Assembly: GCA_025812035.1 (NCBI GenBank)
Contig: GCA_025812035.1_4719.1
Direction: 5' to 3' (one strand)
Origin: a phage
DNA: 64,000 bases
Shown here: positions 3,577-46,620 of the stretch, in pieces
Numbering within the stretch: position 1 is the first letter of the stretch
Layout of the letters: every line of letters begins with the position of its first letter
Program-made: the position numbers and the translations under genes
The notes under the pieces: model-generated
Told to the model about the DNA's origin: nothing
What the model saw: the letters and a program-made list of their open reading frames with translations, nothing else
Database searches by the model: none

Positions 3577-4905
3577 TTATTGCTGTGCTGCGTCAGCCGG
3601 TTTCTCAGCCGCCTGGCCGCCGTACTCTTTCAGCATTTTAGCAGCGCCATCCAGTACAGCATTACCTGCCTGAACACCGTACTTCATCAGGCCGGTCTGC
3701 GGATTCACGTAGCAGGAACGTGCGTCTTTCAGAGCAGACAGTACAGCTTGAACACGCTGTTTTTCCTGAGCGGAAACTTCGCCTTTCTTAGACAGATCAG
3801 CTTCCATATCGTCGCCGAATTTAACAGCGTCTTTGAAGCCCTGGGATTTCTTACCGATGTTGCCTTTCAGCGCCAGCAGTTTGTCAGCCAGTACTTCAAC
3901 ACTGCTAACTGCGGCAGCCAGCTGATTCAGAGACAGTACAGTTGCTTCAACTTCTTTCGCTTCACCGGAACGTTCCCAGGTTACTTTACCGTCGTTGGTT
4001 TTGAAACCCCAACCCGCCGGGCCAGCAACGTCAGCAATCGCCGGTGCGTTCAGTTTATCTGCGTACTCGGTGTGGGACTTAGCAACAACGGTGTTGACGA
4101 ATTTATCAGCACGGTCGTCAGCAGCCTTCATTGCTTTCTCGAAGGTGTCAGCGATTTTAGTTGCACCGGTAACCAGATCGTCACCGCCGATATAACCTGA
4201 AACGCCGCTACCCAGTTTAACTTTGGCATTTTTAGCAGCGCCTTTACGTTTGGCGATCATTTCTTTCAGTTTAGCGGCACGTGCTTTCAGTTTGGTTGCG
4301 CCGTCGAAGATACGATCCATGAACTTCACGAAGGTTTCCCAGGAAGTTTTCAGGAAGTTCTTGATGGTTGCCCACAGTTTCTGCCACCATTTTTGTTCTT
4401 CCAGGAAGATCATGTTGGTTGCATCGTAACGGGAAGCGGAGCCACCGAAGCTTTCGAAGGACGGCATGGTTTCCGGCAGTTTGAAACCGATAGTACCACA
4501 CAGGCGTTTCAGGTTACGCATGTGTTCCTGAGCGGTTTGTGCAGACATACCACCGTCTTTCAGGTAGCTTTCGGTTGCAACAACGGTTTCCGTCAGTTCG
4601 TCCATGGCTTCGTCCATGGCTTCTGCGGTTTCGTCGTCTTTTGCAATTTCGATAACAACAGCATCAACCTGCTCGATATCGCCACGAACTTCGATAGCCA
4701 GTTCGGTTTCAGCTGCGGTATCTTCAGCGATTTCAGCGCGTTCGGTCAGTTCAGCTACAACGGTTTCATCATCTGCTGCTGCTGCGGCATCAGCTGCCGG
4801 TTCTGCTTCAACGGTTGCCGCTGCATCCGGATCGATCTCAGCAGCCAGTTGAACCAGCTGTGCGTTAGATGGATTTGCGACAAGACGATCAAAAATAGAA
4901 GGCAT
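3577..4905 (-). CDS. Paralog family protein, 442 aa, Ala/Asp/Glu-rich N-terminus (putative internal/scaffold-like protein)
   Basis: Long ORF with AAAGGA SD; strongly acidic Ala-rich N-terminal ~100 aa; central region similar to the neighbouring paralogs. Confidence 0.6.
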   Translation of the reverse strand: MPSIFDRLVANPSNAQLVQLAAEIDPDAAATVEAEPAADAAAAADDETVVAELTERAEIAEDTAAETELAIEVRGDIEQVDAVVIEIAKDDETAEAMDEAMDELTETVVATESYLKDGGMSAQTAQEHMRNLKRLCGTIGFKLPETMPSFESFGGSASRYDATNMIFLEEQKWWQKLWATIKNFLKTSWETFVKFMDRIFDGATKLKARAAKLKEMIAKRKGAAKNAKVKLGSGVSGYIGGDDLVTGATKIADTFEKAMKAADDRADKFVNTVVAKSHTEYADKLNAPAIADVAGPAGWGFKTNDGKVTWERSGEAKEVEATVLSLNQLAAAVSSVEVLADKLLALKGNIGKKSQGFKDAVKFGDDMEADLSKKGEVSAQEKQRVQAVLSALKDARSCYVNPQTGLMKYGVQAGNAVLDGAAKMLKEYGGQAAEKPADAAQQ

Positions 4906-4969
4906 AATTTGTTTCCTTTACAATAAATTGCACATTAGCTAATGCGGCTTAAGTGAACCGTTAGCTCAC

Positions 4970-5500
4970 TTAAAAGCCCTTAAAACCCGGTGCCATAGGT
5001 TGCCCAAACACCGCATTCAAAGTACATATGATGTCCTGGATGCCATTGTCCCAATGGAGCCAAGTACGCACCATCTCTTCGTCTGACAACGTGATATAAC
5101 TCATAAGTTTACCGCTGCTTTCCAGACGTTGGTGGGAACTTAATGATTGACGATCTGACCAGTTATCAATCAATTGTCCAGCAATCTGTACGTTCGTGTC
5201 TCGTCTACCCGTATGAATAAACCGTAGCGTATCACGGATAAACTCCAGACTGGTGAAGTTCAGATTTGGGTTATGGCTGTTCATTTCCACCCAGTCGGTA
5301 ATGGGGTACATCAAACGATAAAGGGTGGAAAGAACCTGACGTTCATATTTCCAGTCGTCGAGAGGAGTACCGTCAACCAGACGCTGATACAGACTAACAA
5401 CGTCACGATCGAAGTTCTCTTGGCGTTTTACACCGTTAACAGGAAAACCAAAGAACCCGGTACCGTATAACGTTAAAGGGACGTCACGAAGTGCACTCAT
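4970..5500 (-). CDS. Hypothetical protein, 176 aa
   Basis: ORF with ATGA stop/start overlap to the upstream gene (5497-5500), suggesting translational coupling. Confidence 0.55.
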   Translation of the reverse strand: MSALRDVPLTLYGTGFFGFPVNGVKRQENFDRDVVSLYQRLVDGTPLDDWKYERQVLSTLYRLMYPITDWVEMNSHNPNLNFTSLEFIRDTLRFIHTGRRDTNVQIAGQLIDNWSDRQSLSSHQRLESSGKLMSYITLSDEEMVRTWLHWDNGIQDIICTLNAVFGQPMAPGFKGF

Positions 5501-6399
5501 ACAGCCGCCTCTTCTTTTCGTTTGATATCATAACGAAGTTTCTTCAGTCGGTCTTCGTGATATTCGATCTGCTGTTGGATTTTCGGATCGTTACCTGCAT
5601 TCTGTTGCTTTTGCTTCAGCGACAAAATCCAATACTCCAACGCCTGGGCTTCTTCTTTGGCTGCCTGTAACGATGCTTCTTCACGCTCGCTGCGCCAGAT
5701 ACGGAAACGGTAAACAAGCGTGTCGGTTACATCACCATTAGCCCATGAACCCATACGCATCGGGTCGGTGTTACCTGCATTATACAGACCGTTACCAACG
5801 CCGTCTTCATCAGAAACCACAACATCCGGGATTTTATCCAACCCAGCCAGGATCTGTTGTTTCTGCCCACACAACACTTCGGTGGCAACGGCGAAACCGT
5901 ACATATTGGCGGTCAGGTAAGCAATCTCATTTTTGGTGAAGAATTCACCAAGTGCTTTATCACCACCTGGCATGCTTTCACAGATGACTGTTGCACGAAG
6001 CAACGTACGGGCATAGCTAACGTAGAAGCCCAGGGACTCAACAAGACGTACCAGAGCGGCTTCTTTGAAACTTAGACCGTCAGCAGCGACATCGATTTCC
6101 AGGTTTTTATTAACACGTTTAACGATTTCTGGAATCAGGTCAACCGCATTACGTAGTGCTAAGTGAACATTTTCGACCCAGTTTCCAGAACGAACGCGGG
6201 TTAGGCGTTGATGTAGATCCTTATCAGCAAGTTTCCATAACGCGCTTTCTCCCTTCTGGAGAAGCGAAGCGGATGTCTCGTAGTAAGGAATCGCGGTGTT
6301 GTTGATTTCGTCGCGGATTGATTCAAGTGCGTCAGCAACACCGGTGCGTTTAAAAAGCGGTTTCAGACCGCGAATGAATTCTTTAAAATCAATTGCCAT
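5497..6399 (-). CDS. Hypothetical protein, 300 aa
   Basis: Long ORF in the same operon-like run; Lys/Glu-rich coiled-coil-like C-terminus. Confidence 0.6.
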   Translation of the reverse strand: MAIDFKEFIRGLKPLFKRTGVADALESIRDEINNTAIPYYETSASLLQKGESALWKLADKDLHQRLTRVRSGNWVENVHLALRNAVDLIPEIVKRVNKNLEIDVAADGLSFKEAALVRLVESLGFYVSYARTLLRATVICESMPGGDKALGEFFTKNEIAYLTANMYGFAVATEVLCGQKQQILAGLDKIPDVVVSDEDGVGNGLYNAGNTDPMRMGSWANGDVTDTLVYRFRIWRSEREEASLQAAKEEAQALEYWILSLKQKQQNAGNDPKIQQQIEYHEDRLKKLRYDIKRKEEAAV

Positions 6400-6438
6400 G
6401 AGTGAGCACCTATGCTATTTCGAAACAGGTTACGTGTA

Positions 6439-7545
6439 TTAACGAATCTGTGGGACGTTTCCGGTACGGAGCGCCTGGAGGATCGTCAGAAGATCGGAAC
6501 CCGAGGTTGACGAACTGTTTGATTTTTCCAGTTGTTTGAAGCTTACGGTGGTCCCTTGATCCAGACTGTGGAAATAGAAGGTCACCATCTCCTCAGCTTC
6601 GTCGATGATGATCAGTTGCATTGCAAGGGCTTCAGCCATGACTTTCTGGCGTGTATTGTAATCAGATAAACGACGTCCGATCTTACGCTCGATGGCTTCC
6701 TGGTTAGCCTTAGAGATGATATAGGTGGAGGCGATTGCTCCAGAAGAAGGGATCTTTGTGCTCGCTGCCGCTTTTGCAGCATTGATGCGCGCAGCATTCA
6801 CCGCTTTACGGATACCCTCTTTATCCATGCGTGAGATTCGTTTATGTTCACGAACCAAATCGCTAAGCAGGATCATATCACTCCAGAAAGATAGCTCACC
6901 GGCCATCATGCGATGCCAGCGTGCTCGCCAGGTGTTCTGTGGGCCACCGATTGCTAAAATCGATGCAAGCACTTCCGCTGGTGAACTTGCGATACGCATG
7001 CTGATGTTCAACGGCATTTTCATTGTTGCCTGACCGTCGGTCAGCGTCACCGTTAAGAACTTGCCGGTGACCGCGTTTGCATCTTTGTTCAGCAGTTCGA
7101 TCGCAGCGTCGCTGGCTCCAACATCGATGCTATTTTTTTGTTTCCCCTGCAGGTTGAATCCTTTGTCGTCAAGGAAAACAAGGCTTTTGCTATCCGCACT
7201 TTCCAGTGCTAATTTAACAGCCTTATCCATCAGGTTAGCGTTACGATTTGGGTTAACACGACCCAGCGTTTTATCTACACTGATGTTACCCACCTGCATG
7301 ATGGTGTTCAACGCCAGTAAATAGAACCCGGTATACATGTTTTCAGCGGTGCGCATGCAGTTGCCTAACGCATTGCGTGCGTCGCTATAATACAACTCAC
7401 GTTCAAAGATCAGCGGTGCGATAACGCGTGAAGGTTGTGAGAGTTCAACCAGCGAACCTGGTTGGATAAGTTTATTGACTTCGTAGACTTTAGCGATACC
7501 GGACGCAACAACGTTAACAGCGTCGGCAATTTCTGATGCTACCAT
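6439..7545 (-). CDS. Hypothetical protein, 368 aa (possible virion protein)
   Basis: Long ORF, ATG preceded by AAGGA; first gene of the minus-strand run; no recognisable motif. Confidence 0.6.
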   Translation of the reverse strand: MVASEIADAVNVVASGIAKVYEVNKLIQPGSLVELSQPSRVIAPLIFERELYYSDARNALGNCMRTAENMYTGFYLLALNTIMQVGNISVDKTLGRVNPNRNANLMDKAVKLALESADSKSLVFLDDKGFNLQGKQKNSIDVGASDAAIELLNKDANAVTGKFLTVTLTDGQATMKMPLNISMRIASSPAEVLASILAIGGPQNTWRARWHRMMAGELSFWSDMILLSDLVREHKRISRMDKEGIRKAVNAARINAAKAAASTKIPSSGAIASTYIISKANQEAIERKIGRRLSDYNTRQKVMAEALAMQLIIIDEAEEMVTFYFHSLDQGTTVSFKQLEKSNSSSTSGSDLLTILQALRTGNVPQIR

Positions 7546-35391: not shown

Positions 35392-38004
35392 TTATGCGTC
35401 CGGCGTAAAATCAAAAGGAACGTCCGTACGAATGATATCATAGCGTTTTCCTAAGAAATAGAACTCCTCGGGGACCTGACCGGGAACAATACTATCGCCG
35501 ATGAACTGCGGATATGCCCAGATGTACTGAGTGAGTCCTTCGAACATATCCAGGTTATTTGCGTGGTTACCCATGATACGTTTCCAAAGTTCGCGTTTAT
35601 ACGGTGTTTTAACATCGAACCCATAAAGCGGTGCAAGATCCACACCAGGCACAAATCCCAGGTAGTAGTGGATCTGACTGACCGGGAAACCAAGCGTATC
35701 TCGCGGAATGGTGATCGCTTGCTCAGCCTTGGTGACATGCGTCTCAATAATCCAGTCGTAGCACTCCGAATAGAACCGATCGAATTTCTCTGGATTATAC
35801 CACGCTTTGGGAAGATTCAATTTCTCCGTAAAATCGTTCGACATGATCGTCGGCAAGAAAGGAAGTATGCCCGTCTTTATTTGCGTGTATTTTGATTTTA
35901 CGCGATTTACCAGATTCCAACAAGCATAACCGAGCTGATCGTTACAGAACTCAACGTACAGATCGTAATCCCCTCCCGATAATGGATTATTAATATCACC
36001 GATATCAGCTGCGTATTTGTTGGGGTATCGTGTATTAAATGCCAGTTTGGTTTGGTAATCGTAAATGCACGGTTTATTGTTCTTCGTGTTAATCCACCAC
36101 CATGGCTCACCTACCTGCACGCAAATGTCCTGGACATGAGGATAGATAATATCAGCAAATGCTGTTAACACATCCCCTAACCACGCCATCGCATGTTGGT
36201 TACATGGAGACAACAACCAAGACGGTGGCGTATATCCGGTTGCTGCTATGTTTCCTTCCCAATCCTGCTGCGCCCACTCGAATGGACACGCTGTACTCAT
36301 CAATTCGTAACTTAAACTGATGGTGACAGAGAAATGGTGTTTTGCGGCGTATGCAGCAAAGGCTTCATGCCATGCAATACAGGGTGGATTTAGTACATCT
36401 GTGGTGTTCACCAGTAACTTACCCGCACTTGGTGTCCAGACAGTATCGTAGAAATGCGACATTCCGACATAGTGCACTAATTCATCCTGATAACCCGCAT
36501 ACACCAGGTTTTCAAATACACGCTCTGGCGTGATGTTGTAATGGTCATCATAAGCGGTTATTGCACGAAGCTCATGCGGTGTGCAACGGTGACGATTAAC
36601 CGTCATTTCCTGGTACACCCCATCGATAGGAAGAATCTCGATGGTTAAACCAAGATCGATCGGCGTTTCCAGATAGGTCGTTTCTGTAGCACCTTCTTTA
36701 TAATGTCGAGAACTCATGCTGAACATCAACGATGTTACCGATTCAAGTTCGATGGGTTCGTCAGCATAGAACCCCGCCATCGCATCGTTGAAATCGATCG
36801 TCACGGTCGCACTCGTACCGTCTTTAGAAACGTCGGTTGCATATCGGGTTAATGAGATATACTGGCGACTATCGTCTTTGTGAACGACGGTTAAAACCGG
36901 TGGGTTTTCAGTATCAGCAAAATTACGCTGGTCGCCAGTAAACGTGATCTTCGCTTTAAAGATCAAACCGAATAACGACGTCATGGGGGCATACGCAACG
37001 CAACCATGATCCAGTGTATCCGTTGTTCGCCATTCTATCCCGACCAACCCGTTAGCGGTATGACATCGCATATACGCGTTAAGTACCATGTCTTCACTGA
37101 CAACCGCGAAGTTCTCTGTTGACTGACCGTTGATAATCCAATACATCGGTTGCCAAAGATTACGAGTACCTTTTGCATAGCGGTAGGTTGGCGCGCCTTT
37201 TGGGTTGCCGTTATTAAGATGGAATACAGCAGTACCTTGGTAGTGATCGTTCGTATTAATCGGAACGCTGTAAGCGTCACCGATATCCGTACGTTCGACC
37301 TTAGCGACTGTTGCGTTTTCAAACAGTCCACGTAGCGTAGGAAGACCAATATCTTCAGGCGCGTTTTCTCGACGAATCGCATCCGCGATGCGATGGGCTA
37401 AGGCGGGGTAAATGACTTCACCTTGTTGCAGGTTCGCAAGCCCTGCGAAACGATCGGGGTCGATGCCAGCAATCAATAACTCGACATCACCCTTCGTTCT
37501 ATCGTCGCGGAGGTATTTCAGTCCAGTAAGATCGAGATGTCGAATTAACGACAACAGATCGTACTTACGGTTTTCAACAGTCAGTTCGAGATCACCTGCC
37601 CAAACCAAACTTCCCTCATCCGCCGCTACTCTAACGGATTGTCGGCCTGTGGTAGATGTTGTTGTCGTTTTATTTAATTGCTCTTGTAGGAAGTCGGTTG
37701 CGAGGTCAAAGGCAACGCCGTAACGGTCAGCGACGGCTTGCATGATTTCACGTAACTGGGTATCTTCTTCAATGATAATCTTGACAGGTATTCCCAAGAA
37801 CGCTTTAGTGAGGTCCCGCTTAACCATCGAGACGAATACGGATTTGTAATACCGGCTTCCATCTTTCCCTTTAAAAAGAATGGAAGTTGTTTCGGGTGAC
37901 GATAGAACACGTGCAAATTCAACATCGTCGAATGTAAGAGAAAGTCCGTTTTTCTCGTTGGTTAATCTTAATATTTCATTTTGCGCGGTTTCATGTAACT
38001 TCAT
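35392..38004 (-). CDS. Putative tail fibre / receptor-binding protein, 870 aa
   Basis: N-terminal ~100 aa (KRDLTKAFLGIPVKIIIEED...YGVAFDLATDFL) shared with the 44028 and 44712 proteins; unique long C-terminus; sits in the fibre cluster. Confidence 0.55.
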   Translation of the reverse strand: MKLHETAQNEILRLTNEKNGLSLTFDDVEFARVLSSPETTSILFKGKDGSRYYKSVFVSMVKRDLTKAFLGIPVKIIIEEDTQLREIMQAVADRYGVAFDLATDFLQEQLNKTTTTSTTGRQSVRVAADEGSLVWAGDLELTVENRKYDLLSLIRHLDLTGLKYLRDDRTKGDVELLIAGIDPDRFAGLANLQQGEVIYPALAHRIADAIRRENAPEDIGLPTLRGLFENATVAKVERTDIGDAYSVPINTNDHYQGTAVFHLNNGNPKGAPTYRYAKGTRNLWQPMYWIINGQSTENFAVVSEDMVLNAYMRCHTANGLVGIEWRTTDTLDHGCVAYAPMTSLFGLIFKAKITFTGDQRNFADTENPPVLTVVHKDDSRQYISLTRYATDVSKDGTSATVTIDFNDAMAGFYADEPIELESVTSLMFSMSSRHYKEGATETTYLETPIDLGLTIEILPIDGVYQEMTVNRHRCTPHELRAITAYDDHYNITPERVFENLVYAGYQDELVHYVGMSHFYDTVWTPSAGKLLVNTTDVLNPPCIAWHEAFAAYAAKHHFSVTISLSYELMSTACPFEWAQQDWEGNIAATGYTPPSWLLSPCNQHAMAWLGDVLTAFADIIYPHVQDICVQVGEPWWWINTKNNKPCIYDYQTKLAFNTRYPNKYAADIGDINNPLSGGDYDLYVEFCNDQLGYACWNLVNRVKSKYTQIKTGILPFLPTIMSNDFTEKLNLPKAWYNPEKFDRFYSECYDWIIETHVTKAEQAITIPRDTLGFPVSQIHYYLGFVPGVDLAPLYGFDVKTPYKRELWKRIMGNHANNLDMFEGLTQYIWAYPQFIGDSIVPGQVPEEFYFLGKRYDIIRTDVPFDFTPDA

Positions 38005-38026: not shown

Positions 38027-38668
38027 TTAGATGTACTGCTTACCGCCCACGAAGGAAGTCAGCCAGTTCCCTGAAACAAGCTGCGATACCCAACCGGGTA
38101 CCGCTCTACCATTCTGGCTCATGATGTTACCACACCAACCAGGGAATCCGGGACGGATATAATAGAAAGTTAAATTGTAGAGATGGCAATTCCACACCGC
38201 AACGTTATGTTTACCAGAAACCGCTTTAAAGACAAACGCAACGGGTAAAGGCGACGATAGCAATTCGGTCACAGGGACGGCTGACCAATTCGCATTCGCG
38301 TTCCACGGTTGCCAGGTATGGCTACGCGAGTCGCAAAATACGTTACCGTTGTTACCGCGCCCACCCGCATTCCACCACAGCGACGGACTCATGTTCTTAA
38401 GTGAGGTAAATTGCTGCGGTGGAATATTAGGAATAATAACAGGGTTGGTACCTTGCCCATGTTTCTTTTCTTTTGCGTTCACATACCCGCTTATCGATTC
38501 GAGGTATTTGACACCAGGATAATTGTTCTGGACTTGTGTCGCAATATCACGAACATCAAACGTCCAGCAGATCATGGTGTTGTAGTAAGCATCGGTGTTG
38601 TCGTACCATGCGTTACCATCTTGTAAACGTGCGCCACTATTCGGTGTTTTATCTGTGTTTATAGCCAT
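38027..38668 (-). CDS. Hypothetical protein, 213 aa, conserved-C-terminus pair member A
   Basis: C-terminal ~40 aa (FYYIRPGFPGWCGNIMSQNGRAVPGWVSQLVSGNWLTSFVGGKQYI) nearly identical to the 38780 protein; N-terminus divergent. Confidence 0.55.
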   Translation of the reverse strand: MAINTDKTPNSGARLQDGNAWYDNTDAYYNTMICWTFDVRDIATQVQNNYPGVKYLESISGYVNAKEKKHGQGTNPVIIPNIPPQQFTSLKNMSPSLWWNAGGRGNNGNVFCDSRSHTWQPWNANANWSAVPVTELLSSPLPVAFVFKAVSGKHNVAVWNCHLYNLTFYYIRPGFPGWCGNIMSQNGRAVPGWVSQLVSGNWLTSFVGGKQYI

Positions 38669-38770
38669 GGTATTGTCCTATACGTTGACGGTTGAGATGT
38701 CGGATGCCGGATGTGTGTTGTCATCCGGTGGTACGTACAGAAACACCCACAGATAAAACAGTAGCTTCTC

Positions 38771-38793
38771 TAACTTCAATTAAATTGAAGTTA
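38771..38793. promoter_or_regulatory. 23-bp palindrome TAACTTCAATT-A-AATTGAAGTTA overlapping a stop codon
   Basis: Perfect 11-bp inverted arms at the 3' end of the 38780 gene, adjacent to a second hairpin (CCGGATG...CATCCGG). Confidence 0.35.
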
Positions 38794-39496
38794 GATATTG
38801 TTTACCTCCAACAAACGACGTTAACCAATTACCTGAAACAAGTTGCGATGCCCAGCCAGGCACTGCCCTACCGTTCTGGCTCATCACGTTACCTGCCCAT
38901 CCCGGAAAACCCGGCCGGAAAATATATACTTGAATATGTGTTAAAGCGTTATCATTACCACCGCCAACAGCAACGTTACGACTCCCAGATGACGGGAAAT
39001 ATTCTTTTAAGAACAGAGGATCGGTTGCTAATAAAGATGCGGGCCAAGGGTTCGCGGATGCATCAACATCGAATTCGGTCCATCGCCATTTACGTCCCGT
39101 GTCGAACCATGTCGATGTACCGCCTCCACGCACTGCAAGATTGCGTGCGTCGCGGGCATTGTAAATTGATTCGATGTTACGCCACCCACCTTTTGCGGCG
39201 TTTGCCGCATAGCAAATCGCATTACCACCATTCTTCTTTTCGTAAACAGTTCGTTTGATATGAACACGATCGATGAACGCTTCACCGTATTTGTTGACGA
39301 GCGTTTGTGCGATATCACGAAGATCGTGCATGTGAAAAGCGATGTCTTCGTTATGGAACCATGTTGTCGGGTTCCAGACGGTACCGTTTGGTTCGGCACA
39401 CATCGATCGGATATTGTTGCGTTGATTAACCGCGATAAAACCCATTGTATACCTCGTTCCTATTCTCAAAAAGGAAATTTCATACGATGACGCCAT
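38780..39496 (-). CDS. Hypothetical protein, ~238 aa, conserved-C-terminus pair member B
   Basis: ORF track 38780..39532 begins inside the hairpin; ATG (MASSYEISF) follows AAGGAGG that forms the hairpin 3' arm. Confidence 0.55.
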   Translation of the reverse strand: MASSYEISFLRIGTRYTMGFIAVNQRNNIRSMCAEPNGTVWNPTTWFHNEDIAFHMHDLRDIAQTLVNKYGEAFIDRVHIKRTVYEKKNGGNAICYAANAAKGGWRNIESIYNARDARNLAVRGGGTSTWFDTGRKWRWTEFDVDASANPWPASLLATDPLFLKEYFPSSGSRNVAVGGGNDNALTHIQVYIFRPGFPGWAGNVMSQNGRAVPGWASQLVSGNWLTSFVGGKQYLTSI

Positions 39497-39500
39497 AGCA

Positions 39501-39530
39501 GCTCCTCCTTCCCTTACGGGTTGGAGGAGC
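39501..39530 (-). terminator. GNRA-loop hairpin, family copy 5, inverted orientation; 3' arm carries the SD of the next gene
   Basis: Plus strand GCTCCTCC-TTCCC-TTAC-GGGTT-GGAGGAGC is the reverse complement of the other copies; 3' of the lipoprotein gene; minus-strand AAGGAGG lies 7 nt before the ATG at ~39496. Confidence 0.6.
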
Positions 39531-39538
39531 ATACTTAA

Positions 39539-40045
39539 TTACTCGCTGATAACCTCAACGGAATTGGGATCAGCGATCATCGCACGGTCAGTAGAACAAT
39601 TGAAGAAGACCATGCCGACACCATCGCCGTTCGAGTTCAGGGTTGAACTTACGTAAGACAGGGTTGGTTTATTCATGCGGTAGAAGCGTTCGCTGGTAGC
39701 GGTATTGAACCCCAGATCAACGTAGTCTTTCACCGTGGTATACAGCTGCGTGGATTCGAAGACGGTTACCGGAGAGTCAACGGTAAATTGACTACCTTCA
39801 TCCACAACCAGAACCTTATCGTTCCAGATTTCAGTGGTTGAAAACTTCGGTTTCCAATGTTCGAATTCCTGGGTTGCACCCCAGCAAGAATACACAGCAA
39901 GATTGCTGTTCTTCTCAACAGGTTTCAAACCCACCAGTTGTGTCAGGTCTTTATCCAGGTTCGGTAAGCCTTCCAGCGTAGCACACCCGCCCAGAGAAAG
40001 CACCATCAACATACCAAGAACGATCGCGCAAAGTTTCTTCATCAT
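39539..40045 (-). CDS. Putative lipoprotein, 168 aa (candidate superinfection-exclusion factor)
   Basis: Signal peptide with lipobox MLMVLSLGGC; immediately downstream of the fibre and Tfa genes. Confidence 0.65.
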   Translation of the reverse strand: MMKKLCAIVLGMLMVLSLGGCATLEGLPNLDKDLTQLVGLKPVEKNSNLAVYSCWGATQEFEHWKPKFSTTEIWNDKVLVVDEGSQFTVDSPVTVFESTQLYTTVKDYVDLGFNTATSERFYRMNKPTLSYVSSTLNSNGDGVGMVFFNCSTDRAMIADPNSVEVISE

Positions 40046-40086: not shown

Positions 40087-40503
40087 TTACATAGCAGCAG
40101 GAAATTCCGGCCAATCGATATTTGGTGCAGCATCGGTATCGACAGCCGTCACGGCATCGATGTAATCCAAAACAGCATTAAGTTGAGTCGTTTCTTCCGG
40201 AGTCAGTTTTCGCCCAGCCCGTAATTTTAACTGAATAAGATCGATGGAAGCCAGCGCTGAATCAATCTTTGATTGTTTTATCTGTTCTGCCTCGGCGACG
40301 AGATCTTCGTGCTGCCGCTCGGGTTCAGGAGGCGCGATAAACTCGCCATCCGAGTATAACCAACCTATTCCAGGTGACACAGTTACCGCATCGCTAATAC
40401 TAACCAACTGTTGATTGTCGGATATATTGAGCTCTGCCTCACCATCGTAAACGATCGTGTTTACTACTACCCCATTTTCAATAACAGCGTATGATGTACT
40501 CAT
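40087..40503 (-). CDS. Tail fibre assembly chaperone (Tfa / P2 gpG-like), ~138 aa
   Basis: ORF track 40087..40527; start at MSTSYAVIENG overlapping the fibre stop (TAATG). C-terminal LTPEETTQLNAVLDYIDAVTAVD...NIDWPEFP is the Tfa signature. Confidence 0.8.
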   Translation of the reverse strand: MSTSYAVIENGVVVNTIVYDGEAELNISDNQQLVSISDAVTVSPGIGWLYSDGEFIAPPEPERQHEDLVAEAEQIKQSKIDSALASIDLIQLKLRAGRKLTPEETTQLNAVLDYIDAVTAVDTDAAPNIDWPEFPAAM

Positions 40504-43500
40504 TACATAAACTCCTCGATGATGCAAATCCCATTAGCACCACGCCCACCAGGCTTAGCGCTTCCTGAGAAAGAGTTGTCGTAAGCACCACCACCACCCG
40601 AACCAGGCGCGAGGCCGTTGTGGGCGGTGCCAACACCGGCGCGACCGCCACCGCCCCAATATGACGCACCCCCACACCCACCGACAGTAATAGTACCGGC
40701 TTGTCCGTCGCCACCGTCTCCGCCCGGAATGCGTATATCCCCGGTATTAGGTACGCCCCCATAGCCACCACCAGTGTTTGTGATAGTTGTTTTTCCTGCG
40801 CCTTGCCCGCCGGGAGCGGTTAGCAGGGATGCAAATTTACTATCCCCACCCCCGTTTCCAGATGTTGCTCCAGAGCCGCCGGAACCACCAGAACCAATTA
40901 CAACAGAATAACTAGTAGCTGATATCGTTATAACCGAAATTACTGTTCCACCGGCCCCACCGCCAGCACCAAAAAACGTTTCACCGTTGGAAAAAGCCTG
41001 GCAACCACCGCCACCGCCTCCACCACCGGTTATTGTTACTCTAATCCGTTTTGTTCCTTGTGTTGGGGTGTACGTCCCTGACGATGTGAAAACACGCATG
41101 TTCAGTAAACGTCCGACATATCCGCTAGAATCGGCTAAACCAAGATCTTTAGCTGCTAACGTGATATTAGCTGTACCGTCAAACGGTTTACCGTTAATCG
41201 TGCGCGCAGTCTGCAACTTCGTCGCCGTTGCTGCGTTTCCTGATGTATTCTGGTTTCCCGCGGCGTTAACACCCGGCAGATTGATGTTCGCACTACCGTC
41301 GAAAGACACCCCACCAATGGTGCGAGCTGTTTTCAGTTTTGTCGCCGTGGCAGCATTACCGGTCGTGTCTTGGTTACCGGTGGTGTTTACCCCAGGCAGG
41401 TTGATATTTGCCGTTCCGTTAAATGAAACACCACCAATCGTCCTTGCCGTTTGCAACTTCGTTGCGGATGCCGCATTCCCCGTGGTGTTTTGGTTACCCG
41501 TTGCATTCACGCCCGGGATACTATCCTTAGATGTGTAGATCTGTGCCCATTCCGACCAGTTCGAATCGGTTGCATCACGACGTGAACGTAGGTAAGCTGG
41601 AGCGTGTGCGCCCGCGGTACCTGACCACCCAATAAAGATCTCGCCTTCACCGACCGATGAAGCGCCTTTAAGATGAATGACGTTACCATAAGCGGTAGGA
41701 TATCCGTTATTGTACGCTTCATACATCTGGATGCCCGCATTGCTGCCCTGAGCTGTGTTAGCTAAAGCCGTAACACGACCTTTGGAGGCGAGAGCGGTAA
41801 TACTGAAGCTAATGTCCTTAGTACCGTCAAAGGCGACCCCATTAATCTTCCGTGCTGTTTGGAGTTTCGTGGCAGTAGCCGCATTACCAGAGGTACTCTG
41901 ATTACCTGCTTTGTTCACGCCTGGTAAATCAATGTTGGCTGTTCCATCAAAGGACACGCCCCCTATGGTTCTCGCCGTCTGAAGTTTTGTTGCTGAGCCA
42001 GCGTTTCCGGAAGTGCTTTGATTACCTGCCGCGTTGACACCCGGTAGGTTAATGCTAGCAGAACCATCAAAAGAAACTCCACCTATCGTGATCGGTGTTT
42101 TCAATTTCGTGGCTGTCGCGGCGTTACCCGTCGTATTCTGATTACCGGCTGCATTGACGCCAGGTAATGCGATATCGGCCGTACCGTCGAACGCGACACC
42201 ACCGATTTTACGGGCGGTTTGTAGCTTGGTCGCTGTAGCCGCGTTACCGCTGGTATTTTGCGTGCCCGCTTTATTTACACCGGGAAGATCGATGTTGGCA
42301 GAACCATCGAATCTGACGCCACCTATCGTTCTTGCAGTAGCAAGTTTAGCTGCTGTGGCTGCATTATTGCCCACTTTTAGCCAATCATCCCATGGACCAT
42401 CCTGGCCGTTCCACGACGCCGTTAAACCACGTACGTAAATATTGCCTGTACGTACAGTGTACCGTTGCATCCCACCGAATTGTCCGGCTGGGAGTACTTC
42501 AAGGTAACCTGCGGCATTTGCTTCAGGGAAATTGTGGGCGGCGTCCGCGTTCGTCGCTATTGGTTTAGACCAAATACCCACAGACGCTTCAACCGGACCG
42601 TAGGTATTCAGATTTGCGTCAGCAGGGAGTGGTCCTCGGAAACGCAGTAATTGTATTGGCGTTAACCCCAACGTTCTTTGCATTCCCTCGACACTCGATT
42701 GCGATAAAAGTGCCCGAGCTGTCGACGTGATGGTCGCTAAAGCAACCTTGTCGACTCCAGTGAAATAAGGGAATTTGTTCGCTGATGTCGCTAAACCTGA
42801 AAAGGCGGTCAGTAATGCATTAAGGGGTTGCTTCCCAGCTAACGCTTTCGTTACTGTCGTTGAGAAATTAGGATCACTTCCTATAGCTCGAGCCAGCTTA
42901 TTAAGCGTATTTAGCGCATCTGGAGACGAGTCAATCAACGACGTGATCGCACGCATCACAAATTCCGTGTTGGCAATCTGTCGACTGCTATTGTTAATTG
43001 CTGCGGTGGGTGTTGTTGGAGTACCGGTGAATACAGGACTATTAAGATCCGCCTTGAGAGCAATGAGGCGTTTAAGTGCTTCGACATCGACTTTCAGGTT
43101 TTCCCACCCGATGAGAGAACCGTCTCCGTTGGTATGATAACGGTTATACCAGAAGTCGCCGTTAACACCCCAAAAGAATATACCTTTCTCTTCGTTTTGC
43201 GGGCCGGAACTATTTCGCGATGAGCCGATATATTTGATTTCAATAAGACCCTCAAACACGACTCCCGGGATTATTTTGTTGTCTCCAGCTGACTGTACTA
43301 CTTGATAAACTCCAGGCGTTGCTGCTCTAACCCATGTTAAGAATTCCGTTATTCCAGCGGTGCCACTGAAACGCTTAACGTCGGTAAGTATCGCCCCATA
43401 ACCGAACATACCCGGTAACGCAACTCGTCCGCCGGTACGGTCACGAATATTTGAGGCAACGACGGGCAGCTTTTTACGAACGCTGTTAACCGCCTTAGGT

Positions 43501-44021
43501 GTGGCTGCTTTTGTCTCGTCATCGCTATCGATGGCGTTGCTCAGGATGGTCAGTCCTCGCTTATCTATGGTTGCGTCGGGAAGAAACGCGTTATCCAACA
43601 CTTTAAGCTGTACAGCGCTCGTGTTACTAACAACGAGATACATCTGGCAGTTAAGAACGCTGCTTGCGCCTTCAGTAGGAACAGGCTTGTATCTTTCCGG
43701 TGCGCTGCAGACAGCGACCAGAACACCTCGATCGTCATACAAGCCGATTTCGCGTACCCAGAATCCACCTTGGTTTACAGGAATAATACCCTCAACAATA
43801 ATCCTGGTTGTGTCGTCTGCGTCAACGCGGATGTTAGAAACTTCCCCGCGATAAACTTCGTGTACAAGGGCTGTTTGACTAGCATCGGGAGTTGGTGTAG
43901 AGCCGTTACCGTCACCAACGGCAAAATGTGTAATTTTTAGTTTCTCGCCGTCCGGAAGTAGTGCGGCGGCGATACGTTCAGTACCTTTATCGGTAATGAC
44001 CGTTCTATATGTTGTACTCAT
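40503..44021 (-). CDS. Long tail fibre protein, 1172 aa (P2 gpH / lambda Stf-like N-terminus, fibre repeats, Gly-rich C-terminal tip)
   Basis: N-terminus MSTTYRTVITDKG...HFAVGDGNG...GGFWVREIGLYDD...ETKAATPKAVNSV is P2 gpH-like; ~8 copies of a ~40-aa repeat (TARTIGGVSFDGSANINLPGVNAAGNQNTSGNAATATKLQ); C-terminal ~165 aa Gly-rich. Confidence 0.85.
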   Translation of the reverse strand: MSTTYRTVITDKGTERIAAALLPDGEKLKITHFAVGDGNGSTPTPDASQTALVHEVYRGEVSNIRVDADDTTRIIVEGIIPVNQGGFWVREIGLYDDRGVLVAVCSAPERYKPVPTEGASSVLNCQMYLVVSNTSAVQLKVLDNAFLPDATIDKRGLTILSNAIDSDDETKAATPKAVNSVRKKLPVVASNIRDRTGGRVALPGMFGYGAILTDVKRFSGTAGITEFLTWVRAATPGVYQVVQSAGDNKIIPGVVFEGLIEIKYIGSSRNSSGPQNEEKGIFFWGVNGDFWYNRYHTNGDGSLIGWENLKVDVEALKRLIALKADLNSPVFTGTPTTPTAAINNSSRQIANTEFVMRAITSLIDSSPDALNTLNKLARAIGSDPNFSTTVTKALAGKQPLNALLTAFSGLATSANKFPYFTGVDKVALATITSTARALLSQSSVEGMQRTLGLTPIQLLRFRGPLPADANLNTYGPVEASVGIWSKPIATNADAAHNFPEANAAGYLEVLPAGQFGGMQRYTVRTGNIYVRGLTASWNGQDGPWDDWLKVGNNAATAAKLATARTIGGVRFDGSANIDLPGVNKAGTQNTSGNAATATKLQTARKIGGVAFDGTADIALPGVNAAGNQNTTGNAATATKLKTPITIGGVSFDGSASINLPGVNAAGNQSTSGNAGSATKLQTARTIGGVSFDGTANIDLPGVNKAGNQSTSGNAATATKLQTARKINGVAFDGTKDISFSITALASKGRVTALANTAQGSNAGIQMYEAYNNGYPTAYGNVIHLKGASSVGEGEIFIGWSGTAGAHAPAYLRSRRDATDSNWSEWAQIYTSKDSIPGVNATGNQNTTGNAASATKLQTARTIGGVSFNGTANINLPGVNTTGNQDTTGNAATATKLKTARTIGGVSFDGSANINLPGVNAAGNQNTSGNAATATKLQTARTINGKPFDGTANITLAAKDLGLADSSGYVGRLLNMRVFTSSGTYTPTQGTKRIRVTITGGGGGGGGCQAFSNGETFFGAGGGAGGTVISVITISATSYSVVIGSGGSGGSGATSGNGGGDSKFASLLTAPGGQGAGKTTITNTGGGYGGVPNTGDIRIPGGDGGDGQAGTITVGGCGGASYWGGGGRAGVGTAHNGLAPGSGGGGAYDNSFSGSAKPGGRGANGICIIEEFM
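41140..41525 (-). repeat. Tandem ~117-bp coding repeats inside the tail fibre gene, block 2
   Basis: About three copies encoding the ~40-aa fibre repeat; near-identical DNA between copies. Confidence 0.7.
41795..42360 (-). repeat. Tandem ~117-bp coding repeats inside the tail fibre gene, block 1
   Basis: About 4.5 copies encoding TARTIGGVSFDG...NAATATKLQ-type repeats. Confidence 0.7.
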
Positions 44022-44027
44022 GGCGTT

Positions 44028-44555
44028 TTATCCCGGGTAAATAGTGATGGTGTCACCAACGAGGGTTGTGGCACCAGAGTAAAGATACGCTGGTGATGCT
44101 TCACGTTGGTTAGTCACGGTAAGATTCATTTGCCCACGCCAAACCATGGAGGTATTCGCGATGGGAATCAAGATCTTCTTGGAAGTATCGTCACGAAAAT
44201 TAATGGTGGTAGCAAGGGTAGCTGAATCAAAATCAACGTCAGGTTCAAAGATGAACCCGTATTGATCTGAAATAGCTTGAATGACCGCTCTTATAGTTGT
44301 TGTTTCAACCGACTCCAAAACGATTTTTATCGGTATTCCTAGAAACGCTTTCGCGATATCACGTCGTGTGTAAGTAATAAAACTCTCACCACACCACCTT
44401 GTTCCTTCATTTGCTGTGACGATCACTTTTGCCCTGTTAGCACCAGAACTCCCATCCAGGGTTAAAGTGAGATCGGAGTTACTGAATACGCTACTGTTAC
44501 GTTGGTTTATCAACGCAATCAGTTCGTCCTTCCACGGCGGGTAAAGTGAACGCAT
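44028..44555 (-). CDS. Short protein with the shared fibre N-terminal anchor domain, ~176 aa
   Basis: ORF track 44028..44576; start at MRSLYPPWKDE after GGAGGAGGG. YTRRDIAKAFLGIPIKIVLE...QYGFIFEPDVDF matches the N-termini of the 870-aa and LRR proteins. Confidence 0.55.
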   Translation of the reverse strand: MRSLYPPWKDELIALINQRNSSVFSNSDLTLTLDGSSGANRAKVIVTANEGTRWCGESFITYTRRDIAKAFLGIPIKIVLESVETTTIRAVIQAISDQYGFIFEPDVDFDSATLATTINFRDDTSKKILIPIANTSMVWRGQMNLTVTNQREASPAYLYSGATTLVGDTITIYPG

Positions 44556-44667
44556 AAGCGCACCCTCCTCCAACAATCAATTAAAATGCAAAACACCTCG
44601 AAACCAGAGTGCGATTCGAAGCAAGCGTAAACGGCCTGAACGACCGCATAAAATTCCGCGCATATTA

Positions 44668-44711: not shown

Positions 44712-46466
44712 TTATGCTGCTACGTATCCAGGCCAACGTTCTCTTGGCCAGTTTGTTGCACCCTGTCCGACGGTGTCTTTACCAGAAATGACGTTACTTA
44801 CATCCCATCCACTCAGATCCTGATTGAATGCGGTGTTCTCGCGCATCATGAGATCGATCTTACGTAGTGAGTGGGTATTCCAACCAGATATGTCTTGGTT
44901 GAATGCTTTATTGTAGGCAAACATGTTAGACACGTTCTGTAATTTTGACGTGTTCCAACCACTGATGTCGCTATTGAACGACGTGCTTGAGAACATGCTG
45001 CTCGCATCAACAAGATTGTCGGTTTTCCAATTAACCACTTTATCGCCGTCAAATGCATTGCTGCTGCTGAACATAAAACTCATATTGCTAGCTTTGGACA
45101 CATCCCATTTATCTAACCCTTTACCGACGAACTCATTACATGCCGAGAACATCCAGCTCATATCGGTAACCCGACTCACGTTCCATTTGCTGAAGTCAAG
45201 GTTAAGTTTCTGACACCCTAAGAAGGTCTTATACATGTTGGTGATGCGACTAACATCCCACTCTTGGATGTTAGGGTCGTTAAGCGTCGTTAAGTAGTTG
45301 AACAATGTCGCTAACGACGTCCATTTCTCTGGAATCCGGTTTGGTACCGTACGAAGCGATGCAAGGTTGTTGGTTGACGGAGAGCAGAACATACCGTTAT
45401 CCCAATTTACGATTTCCGTAATTTTGGACCCTTTGATCGTCTGAGTGGTATTACCATCTTTCACTATACCCGTAGCAACGATGGTATATTCACCGGTGCC
45501 TGCATAATCGTGGGCGTAGGCACCGTTACTTGAGGTCTCCGTTACTTTATTCCCATCACCCCAATCGATATTAACTTTATCCCACCCACTTAGGTTGAAC
45601 TGTACTTTGCCTCCGGTAGCTTTTAGGATGTATTTACCTCCATTGTCGGTAAAATAGCAGACAACCATTGAACCGTACAGATTACCTATCCGCCAATCAT
45701 CCTTTTCTGTCACTGCGATTTGCGCTAAGCCACGCTGTACGAAGAGTACTGTGCGGTTCTCGTCAGTCTGTAATGTGGCTAATGCTTGGGCCTTATCGTC
45801 CTCGCTAATTTCATTAGCGCTCACTAAAACGCTTAACATTCTTTCGAAGTATTCGATGGGTAATTGACGTCCTACAGACTTATCAACCGACGGTTCAGCA
45901 AGATCGCCCAACGCTGCAGTGGTGGCCAGCATCAACGAACCCTTGGTCATATCTGTTTCTTGTAGGTAGTGCAGTCCTGTAATCTGGTACGCTTGAATAA
46001 TCGTAATCAGGTTCAGCGTATCGTTAACGACCTGTACTTGTAAATGTCCAGACCATACGTAGCTGCTTTCGGCAATTGGTAGTTCGACCGACTGGATACC
46101 TGATGTTTCAAAGGTGATCTTCTTGTTAAGATCGGTTTCCAGGAAATCAACAGCGAGGTCAAAATTTATACCGTACTTCTCAGCGATAGAATCCACGATG
46201 TTTCTGAAAGCAACGTCATTATTTACGATGAAACGTAATGGGATTCCTGCAAACGCTCTAGCAATGTCTCGACGAACATACGTGAGCGACTGCTCGAAGA
46301 AATAGGGGCTACCATCTCGCGGTTTAATGGTCACCTGACATACTTCGGGATATTCAGCTGGGATTAACGACACGAATTCAACATCGGATTCTTTCAATGA
46401 AAGCATATTCTTCCGGTTTACTAATGCCAGAAGATCGGCTTTCCAACCAGGATAAACTGTAGACAT
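44712..46466 (-). CDS. Putative receptor-binding protein with BspA/DUF285-type leucine-rich repeats, ~585 aa
   Basis: ORF track 44712..46550; start at MSTVYPGWKAD after GGAG. Shared N-terminal anchor; C-terminal repeats WNVSRVTDMSWMFSAC, WDVSKASNMSFMFSSS, WNTSKLQNVSNMFAYN, WDVSNV. Confidence 0.65.
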   Translation of the reverse strand: MSTVYPGWKADLLALVNRKNMLSLKESDVEFVSLIPAEYPEVCQVTIKPRDGSPYFFEQSLTYVRRDIARAFAGIPLRFIVNNDVAFRNIVDSIAEKYGINFDLAVDFLETDLNKKITFETSGIQSVELPIAESSYVWSGHLQVQVVNDTLNLITIIQAYQITGLHYLQETDMTKGSLMLATTAALGDLAEPSVDKSVGRQLPIEYFERMLSVLVSANEISEDDKAQALATLQTDENRTVLFVQRGLAQIAVTEKDDWRIGNLYGSMVVCYFTDNGGKYILKATGGKVQFNLSGWDKVNIDWGDGNKVTETSSNGAYAHDYAGTGEYTIVATGIVKDGNTTQTIKGSKITEIVNWDNGMFCSPSTNNLASLRTVPNRIPEKWTSLATLFNYLTTLNDPNIQEWDVSRITNMYKTFLGCQKLNLDFSKWNVSRVTDMSWMFSACNEFVGKGLDKWDVSKASNMSFMFSSSNAFDGDKVVNWKTDNLVDASSMFSSTSFNSDISGWNTSKLQNVSNMFAYNKAFNQDISGWNTHSLRKIDLMMRENTAFNQDLSGWDVSNVISGKDTVGQGATNWPRERWPGYVAA

Positions 46467-46620
46467 AAGCACTCCAATCATGGGGCGGTAACCGCACCCA
46501 ACGGTTAAATTGTCGATTATGGTCGTTGCTGATAAGACGACCATAACCAACGATGTTTAATATGTAGTATATTGATATCATGACGTTATGGGGATCTAAG
46601 TCATACCATGGAGACGGCGA

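Follow-up and report, generated by a model that had tools for sequence, protein, structure and literature searches.

Tandem paralogues in the fibre cluster of a Goslar-like jumbo phage combine a constant C-terminal segment with divergent bodies of predicted carbohydrate-binding-module-like fold

The window analysed here, a 64,000-nucleotide (nt) stretch of phage DNA (NCBI GenBank assembly GCA_025812035.1, contig GCA_025812035.1_4719.1), comes from a Goslar-like E. coli jumbo phage, with 92% nucleotide identity to Goslar and collinearity at the locus described below. Two adjacent genes, A and B, lie there on the minus strand, separated by a spacer of 111 nt with no gene between them (Table 1). 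Both open reading frames (ORFs) are present where a first-pass annotation, made by a model from the letters alone, had placed them. It was also right to put them inside a fibre cluster: in order of transcription, the genes are a tail fibre, a Caudo_TAP chaperone, the gp088 homologue, B, A and the gp086 homologue, a DUF7941/TIM-barrel protein. ORFs also overlap the region on the plus strand (for example 38692-39258); they run antisense to a pair of conserved genes, A and B, and were set aside.

Protein A corresponds to Goslar gp087 (YP_009820772.1, 'hypothetical protein') in length, in its place between gp088 and gp086, and by 96% amino acid identity. The literature assigns gp087 to no family and gives it neither a function nor a fold; Goslar, unlike the window, has no B.

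A ends in IRPGFPGWCGNIMSQNGRAVPGWVSQLVSGNWLTSFVGGKQYI and B in FRPGFPGWAGNVMSQNGRAVPGWASQLVSGNWLTSFVGGKQYLTSI. These termini are identical at 38 of 43 residues and match the motif that had drawn attention to the pair, except that its first residue is I in A, not F. The remainders of the two proteins, described at first as unrelated, turn out to be homologous on alignment. Over the full length, A and B share 39% identity across 200 aa (BLASTP, E 2e-34); with the shared tail removed, 26% identity remains across 142 aa (BLASTP, E 4e-6), and the Smith-Waterman score of the N-terminal parts is 83, against 32.6 ± 5.3 in 1000 shuffles (z 9.6). In an alignment of 17 family members, the N-terminal columns W41, D58, R60 and P160 (B numbering; a W, a D-x-R and a P) are nearly invariant. 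A and B are ancient, diverged tandem paralogues of one small protein family.

The predicted structures agree with each other. AlphaFold2 gave models with a mean predicted local distance difference test score (pLDDT) of 82 for A, from an alignment of 9 sequences, and of 79 for B, from 17. Both bodies are modelled confidently, at pLDDT of about 90, and have an identical order of strands and helices: at the level of the models, the two share a common fold. It is a β-sandwich that can be superposed on solved CBM96/DNRLRE-type modules, and in a viral model library Goslar gp087 and the PCH45 homologue come first among the matches, with a pectate lyase, a protein annotated as CBM96 and tail proteins next. 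Sequence searches with A and B gave no match in Pfam (E ≤ 0.01), PHROGs, NCBIfam (E ≤ 1) or, with the family profile, PDB sequences (E ≤ 10); the CBM96/DNRLRE sequence profile is accordingly missing among the matches in Pfam, NCBIfam and PDB sequences.

Apart from the leader of B, the conserved segment is the sole part of either model with low confidence (pLDDT 41-59), despite being the best conserved in the alignment. In A, the score falls to 48-59 for about residues 173-208, and the final strand (209-212) is confident; in B, it stays below 50 at residues 209-228, ahead of a terminal strand at 231-234. Both models end in a confident strand of four residues, by which the chain returns to the sandwich. 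The segment thus consists of about 35 residues rich in Trp, Gly, Pro, Asn and Gln, then a final β-strand, and its modelled behaviour is compatible with ordering only in a complex.

The C-terminal segments are old. Across 42 shared codons, A and B are 90% identical in amino acids (4 of 42 residues differ) and 74% in nucleotides. Differences are found at 27.5 of 30 synonymous sites (proportion pS 0.92), against a nonsynonymous proportion pN of 0.057, and the same codon is used at 10 of 34 degenerate identical residues, where independent draws would give 11.9 ± 2.7. The synonymous sites of the two tails are therefore fully randomised, and purifying selection on the protein keeps them similar. The idea that recombination between the tails is selected against was also considered and rejected, since their synonymous divergence is no greater than chance (P 0.30). 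That the near-identity reflects recent gene conversion or a recent partial duplication, instead of constraint, is very improbable: this randomisation contradicts it, and the segment stays conserved in all of the family, even where overall identity is as low as 21-27%. Patchy conversion does occur, as B-type patches are found in the C-terminal region of A in Goslar and in the related sequence L006 (Val to Ala; Cys-Gly-Asn-Ile to Ala-Gly-Asn-Val).

At the nucleotide level, these patches are short B-type tracts within the A tail (Goslar, L001 9030-9155; L006, 6512-6639). Both genomes are now without B, and the tracts look like what conversion between the paralogues, or recombination with relatives that carry B, would have left behind.

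Across the family, the bodies average 24% pairwise identity and the tails 56%; among the types found in Goslar-like phages, the values are 20-37% and 67-91%, respectively. Such a contrast had suggested a docking module recombined onto unrelated N-terminal domains. We now give this model next to no credence, even though it fits two observations well: nucleotide breakpoints do lie at the boundary of the conserved C-terminus in related genomes, and identity changes sharply there (88% in the tail against 22% in the body). The N-terminal parts are homologous both in sequence and in predicted fold, and the segment occurs on no other kind of protein in the searches run. A hidden Markov model (HMM) of the segment, applied to six-frame translations of the window and of all fetched loci, finds family members only, so the tail is not a module shared among different kinds of protein. 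In an exhaustive profile search of 1.84 billion representatives, every match has the same β-sandwich body or is a fragment. A search of 5.8 billion proteins with the C-terminus alone gave 13 candidates, with one 61-aa A-type fragment reported; it failed to recover the known members and is weak evidence. Of the idea of interchangeable accessory subunits, what stands is a constant C-terminus with exchangeable bodies; grafting onto unrelated domains does not.

How the bodies are exchanged can be read from seven Goslar-like sequences (the window, L004, L005, Goslar, L006, L008 and L010), among which the locus takes four states. B and A are both present in the window and in L005. L004 has in its B slot a P0008-type body, 22% identical to the body of B and 35% to that of A; its A gene has a GTG start, a TGA in place of W98 and an Arg in place of an invariant Gly, and is likely a pseudogene, judging by these lesions. 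Goslar, L006 and L008 carry A only, yet a P0008-type gene has left about 29 codons there, ending in a stop, together with the ATG, the Shine-Dalgarno sequence (SD) and the hairpin; in Goslar, 28 nt stand in place of window positions 38721-39441. The last state, a B-type copy alone, occurs only in L010, where A and gp086 are both absent. Protein P0017 represents a second deletion form. Each of the seven genomes retains at least one intact copy, which suggests partial redundancy of A and B.

The search for recombination breakpoints at the start of the conserved C-terminus, proposed with the first-pass annotation, was positive. Between the window and L004, nucleotide homology extends to 39442 (codon 18 of B), is lost, and returns where the conserved tail begins, with its first codon at 38915; the stretch 38916-39441, from codon 19 on, is swapped in L004 for a different, homologous body. 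Comparison with L005 gives a similar picture for A. Its body has a synonymous divergence (dS) of 2.9 and a nonsynonymous divergence (dN) of 0.22, against a dS of 0.3-0.7 and a dN of 0.01-0.025 in the tail of A (dS 0.67), in B and in four flanking genes. The dN/dS ratio is low throughout this comparison (0.02-0.10). Together, the breakpoints and the contrast in dS indicate that the bodies are deep alleles moved by recombination within conserved ends, and not products of rapid local positive selection.

The family is small. A profile search of 5.8 billion proteins returned 8 family clusters, and an exhaustive HMMER scan of the 1.84 billion representatives 13 members, 8 of them at E < 1e-30. It is confined to a subset of the nucleus-forming jumbo phages (chimalliviruses), namely Goslar-like, PCH45-like and SPLA10-like ones, and comes in short forms of 213-238 aa (A-type, B-type, P0008-type, P0011 and SPLA10-type) and long forms of 316-370 aa (PCH45-type), in which an extra domain follows the conserved segment. 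The C-terminal segment is conserved throughout.

Other family members sit behind a different fibre. In PCH45 and SPLA10, the gene is directly 3' of a Peptidase_S74 fibre protein of about 575 aa; the PCH45 homologue (370 aa, YP_011108444.1) is probably gp61, by accession order, beside fibre gp60. In L014, a Goslar-like metagenome contig of 237.5 kb, the 316-aa P0013 is encoded within 5824-6987, between a Peptidase_S74 fibre and an endolysin. That fibre matches Goslar gp025, its homologue, at 97% identity; where L014 has P0013, Goslar has just a spacer of 126 nt, which makes a clean indel of 1164 nt. The short contig L013 has the same arrangement as L014, with a Peptidase_S74 match below the Pfam cut-off (17.2 vs 22 bits, E 0.0064). 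The site behind the Peptidase_S74 fibre is a third slot for the family. Runs of G8 and G12 occur upstream of the P0013 gene in the L014 insert.

Table 1 Features of the A/B locus and its neighbours; positions are those of the window.
Feature	Position	Strand	Remarks
Gene A	38027..38668	minus	213 aa, from the ORF list; orthologue of Goslar gp087 (YP_009820772.1), 96% aa identity
A body, residues 1-171	38156..38668	minus	predicted β-sandwich, carbohydrate-binding-module-like
A conserved C-terminal segment, residues 172-213	38030..38155	minus	RPGFPGWCGNIMSQNGRAVPGWVSQLVSGNWLTSFVGGKQYI
Gene B	38780..39496	minus	238 aa (ATG 39496) or 221 aa (conserved ATG 39445); absent from Goslar
B body, residues 18-193	38918..39445	minus	predicted β-sandwich, same fold as A
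B conserved C-terminal segment, residues 194-238	38783..38917	minus	
B 17-codon leader, MASSYEISFLRIGTRYT	39446..39496	minus	optional or possibly untranslated; nucleotides conserved
Stable hairpin between gp088 homologue and B	39497..39535	minus	3' arm with SD GGAGGAG (39502-39508)
12-bp AT-rich perfect palindrome around B stop codon (TAA 38780-38782)	38769..38795		
gp088 homologue, upstream neighbour	39539..40045	minus	168 aa, lipoprotein-like N-terminus LSLGGC
gp086 homologue, downstream neighbour	35392..38004	minus	870 aa; DUF7941 + NCTSP_N + TIM barrel (Pfam)
Caudo_TAP chaperone gene	40087-40527	minus	PF02413 match, E 1.4e-20
Tail fibre	40503-44021	minus	1172 aa; Phage_tail_fib, Phage_fiber_2, Gly_rich_2

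Virion data exist for Goslar. Mass spectrometry of its virions detected gp087 with 4 peptides, 28.6% coverage and 12.7/19.1/30.0 estimated copies (bioRxiv 10.64898/2026.04.21.720040, Table S4). Virion association of the orthologue of A is likely but not secure. Estimates for its neighbours are 3-7 copies per virion for gp086, 29-68 for the fibre gp090 and 35-82 for the chaperone gp089; gp088, of no known function, reaches 490-1160 and is among the most abundant virion-associated proteins (bioRxiv 10.64898/2026.04.21.720040). The cryo-electron microscopy (cryo-EM) part of the same study could not model the peripheral baseplate, the fibres or the filament cloud, and proposed that DUF7941 proteins including gp86 make up this cloud, with carbohydrate-binding domains, at the unresolved peripheral baseplate (bioRxiv 10.64898/2026.04.21.720040). 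This cloud of DUF7941 filaments would offer an obvious place for small accessory proteins that resemble carbohydrate-binding modules. The gp086 homologue, missing together with A in L010, is a candidate partner of A.

We propose that A and B are low-copy accessory subunits of the host-recognition apparatus, in the tail fibres or the peripheral baseplate. Their invariant C-terminal segment would be what touches a constant partner, whether this is some phage protein or the segment in further copies, and the divergent body would face variable host surface glycans. The locus behaves as a two-slot cassette site: recombination within conserved ends exchanges the bodies, either slot can be deleted or pseudogenised, and swapping or losing a body would probably serve to vary host recognition. 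Taken as a whole, from ancient paralogy and bodies resembling carbohydrate-binding modules to accessory host recognition from a cassette locus, this is the explanation that we lean towards, if only slightly. Its functional core, low-copy glycan-binding subunits whose constant segment touches a constant partner, seems to us evenly balanced between right and wrong; glycan binding and docking through the C-terminus are what we infer, and so is partial redundancy.

Several points weigh against this proposal. The likeness to carbohydrate-binding modules is at fold level only, with 7-11% identity. Low pLDDT in the segment is soft evidence with alignments as shallow as 9 and 17 sequences. The gp087 signal is weak, thymidylate synthase is found at a similar copy number, nucleus and PhuZ assemblies co-purify with the virions, and gp087 is absent from both the cryo-EM model and the text of the paper (bioRxiv 10.64898/2026.04.21.720040). 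One family member, P0011 (218 aa, L009 6001-6657), lies beside a thymidylate synthase and many small ORFs, in surroundings that look non-structural and hold no fibre cluster. The conserved segment need not be a free C-terminal tail, for the PCH45-type long forms continue past it with an extra domain of about 150 aa and so hold it internally. Finally, a segment so rich in Trp, Asn and Gln could itself be a ligand site.

The last two points belong to a different reading, in which the segment binds the ligand, for example a conserved host glycan or a cell-wall component, and the sandwich is a drifting scaffold; no docking role is then needed. The composition suits it, with Trp, Asn, Gln, Ser and Gly in abundance and three G/P-x-W motifs, as sugar-binding platforms often have, and the confident return of the final strand to the sandwich makes the segment a long surface loop, which may be internal, more than a free tail. 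A binding loop that is pre-formed and packs on its own domain usually receives a confident model, however, and here the segment is the only low-confidence part. Phage receptor-binding proteins usually turn their variable part to the host and their constant part to the virion, and the bodies pass between near-identical genomes as deep alleles, in a way that is typical of specificity determinants. We regard this reading as unlikely. Somewhat less probable again is that A and B are non-structural assembly factors, chaperones for the fibre or for glycosidase-like neighbours such as gp086, of which traces remain in virion preparations. In every fibre-cluster context, family members stand next to a fibre gene or directly downstream of one, gp087 is detected at a level where contaminants also appear, and A and gp086 are jointly absent in L010. 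Against it, A and B match neither Caudo_TAP nor any chaperone family, a true Caudo_TAP gene is already in the cluster, and an intramolecular chaperone domain, Peptidase_S74, is built into the fibres that precede family members in PCH45, SPLA10 and L014. The predicted fold, moreover, resembles carbohydrate-binding modules and not known fibre chaperones, and the estimated copies of gp087 (13-30) exceed those of gp086 (3-7).

Our proposal of accessory host-recognition subunits can be taken further. The Trp/Gly-rich segment might be a universal plug that inserts small carbohydrate-binding cassettes into the peripheral baseplate or the DUF7941 filament cloud of the nucleus-forming jumbo phages; the two-slot locus and the third slot would then let recombination swap, add and drop glycan specificities with the large fibre proteins untouched. 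We hold this extension to be speculative and improbable as it stands.

Comparison with known systems gives partial likenesses. In T-even phages, gp38 of the T2/T6/S16 type is a small separate polypeptide of the fibre cluster; its conserved part is thought to attach to the fibre, and its variable part, which is mosaic, sets receptor specificity. A and B are similar in being small fibre-cluster proteins with a conserved and a variable part and mosaic exchange, a likeness drawn from general knowledge in which the attachment of A and B to a fibre is putative. The polarity is opposite, as the N-terminus of gp38 is the attached end and its C-terminus the variable one. The fold differs as well (gp38 is a polyglycine-II sandwich with glycine-rich motifs), and there is no sequence similarity. 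Tail-fibre/Caudo_TAP (PF02413) cassettes of lambdoid, Mu and P2-like phages also combine a fibre cluster with cassette-like exchange; A and B have no PF02413 match and a different predicted fold, and the Caudo_TAP gene of the window is found two genes upstream of B.

With the DUF7941 filament proteins of chimalliviruses (Goslar gp22, gp23 and gp86), A and B share the neighbourhood, the restriction to chimalliviruses and a proposed display of carbohydrate-binding domains around the baseplate. Pfam finds no match to DUF7941 (PF25613) in A or B. Kinship to the DUF7941 docking linkers, which serve head-to-tail filament assembly, was rejected, as the C-terminal segment has no match in Goslar gp22 or gp23. 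DNRLRE/CBM96-like modules such as the chondroitin-sulfate-binding PDB 8WAB and the alginate-binding 7VBO are β-sandwiches, as A and B are predicted to be. Unlike them, A and B are free-standing and not modules of an enzyme; they carry the conserved C-terminal segment of about 40 residues.

The host-recognition apparatus of chimalliviruses is still largely unresolved, and the unannotated Goslar gp087 and its relatives now gain a family and a predicted fold. A constant tail, variable bodies and copies that are swapped, added or lost between near-identical phages form the signature expected of host-range determinants, which makes these small genes inexpensive candidates when the host range of jumbo phages is to be engineered. 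Should the tail prove to be an anchor, it could serve as a compact tag for loading foreign binding domains onto virions. The general concept is unchanged: mosaicism with a conserved anchor and a variable head is well known in phage receptor-binding genes.

The start of B deserves separate treatment. The hairpin upstream of it has a folding energy of -25.5 kcal/mol (z -3.94, RNA fold), with an SD in its 3' arm just upstream of ATG 39496. The gene had been said to be translated from this SD, and the SD (GGAGGAG) is indeed there. A second start, ATG 39445 (M18), has an SD of its own (GAGG, 6-nt spacer), aligns with M1 of A and is conserved in all five sequences aligned (the window, L004, L005, L010 and the Goslar remnant); an upstream ATG is missing altogether from L010, and residues 1-17 of B, modelled as disordered at pLDDT 33-45, have no counterpart in A. 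For these reasons, a B of 221 aa from ATG 39445, whose translation would not use the hairpin SD, is no less likely than one of 238 aa. The B leader survives in Goslar as a remnant ended by a stop codon.

The hairpin is present in Goslar, L004 and L005, and every relative has kept one, even where B is deleted; it may act as a terminator, or as a stabiliser of the abundant gp088 transcript. In L005 (about 5135-5172), the inner 14 nt of the hairpin are inverted: in place of AACCCGTAAGGGAA stands TTCCCTTACGGGTT, its exact reverse complement. L010 has another sequence at about 4905-4945, with a stem of like kind and an SD-like 3' arm. A late-promoter motif in the leader was tried and rejected: CATCGTATGA, searched for by analogy with the TATG late-promoter motif of phiKZ, shows no enrichment, as the window has 8 matches where 5.3 ± 2.4 would be expected. 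At the other end of B, L005 and P0002 have AAA instead of the stop codon TAA, and the frame reads through 34 hydrophobic codons to just before A; L004 lacks one arm of the stop-codon palindrome.

The gp088 homologue adjoins the B slot in all Goslar-like genomes examined. A conserved pair of gp088 with a family member was nevertheless rejected as a general rule, for the neighbour of P0011 in L009 is unrelated to gp088; a comparison of the L009 contig itself with 50,697 phage records gave no near match. At its start, the gp088 homologue has a lipoprotein-like signal with a lipobox, MMKKLCAIVLGMLMVLSLGGC, even though Goslar gp088 is so abundant in the virion.

The layout first sought in A and B, a shared attachment module on different bodies, is that of the DUF7941 proteins, where it is N-terminal and has already been described for Goslar. 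Three proteins of the cluster have an N-terminal DUF7941 (35392-38004, 44028-44576 and 44712-46550, all on the minus strand), and their C-terminal parts differ. The third of them, a protein of 612 aa with DUF7941 and DUF285, replaces Goslar gp092 (coding sequence, CDS, of 3597 nt). The fibre cluster as a whole is mosaic relative to Goslar: the tail fibre of the window has a Gly_rich_2 domain at its C-terminus, Goslar gp090 is longer (3975-nt CDS), and in the repeat region identity between the two falls to 65-85%. The fibre at this locus is of the Peptidase_S74 type in L005 and has yet another C-terminus in L006.

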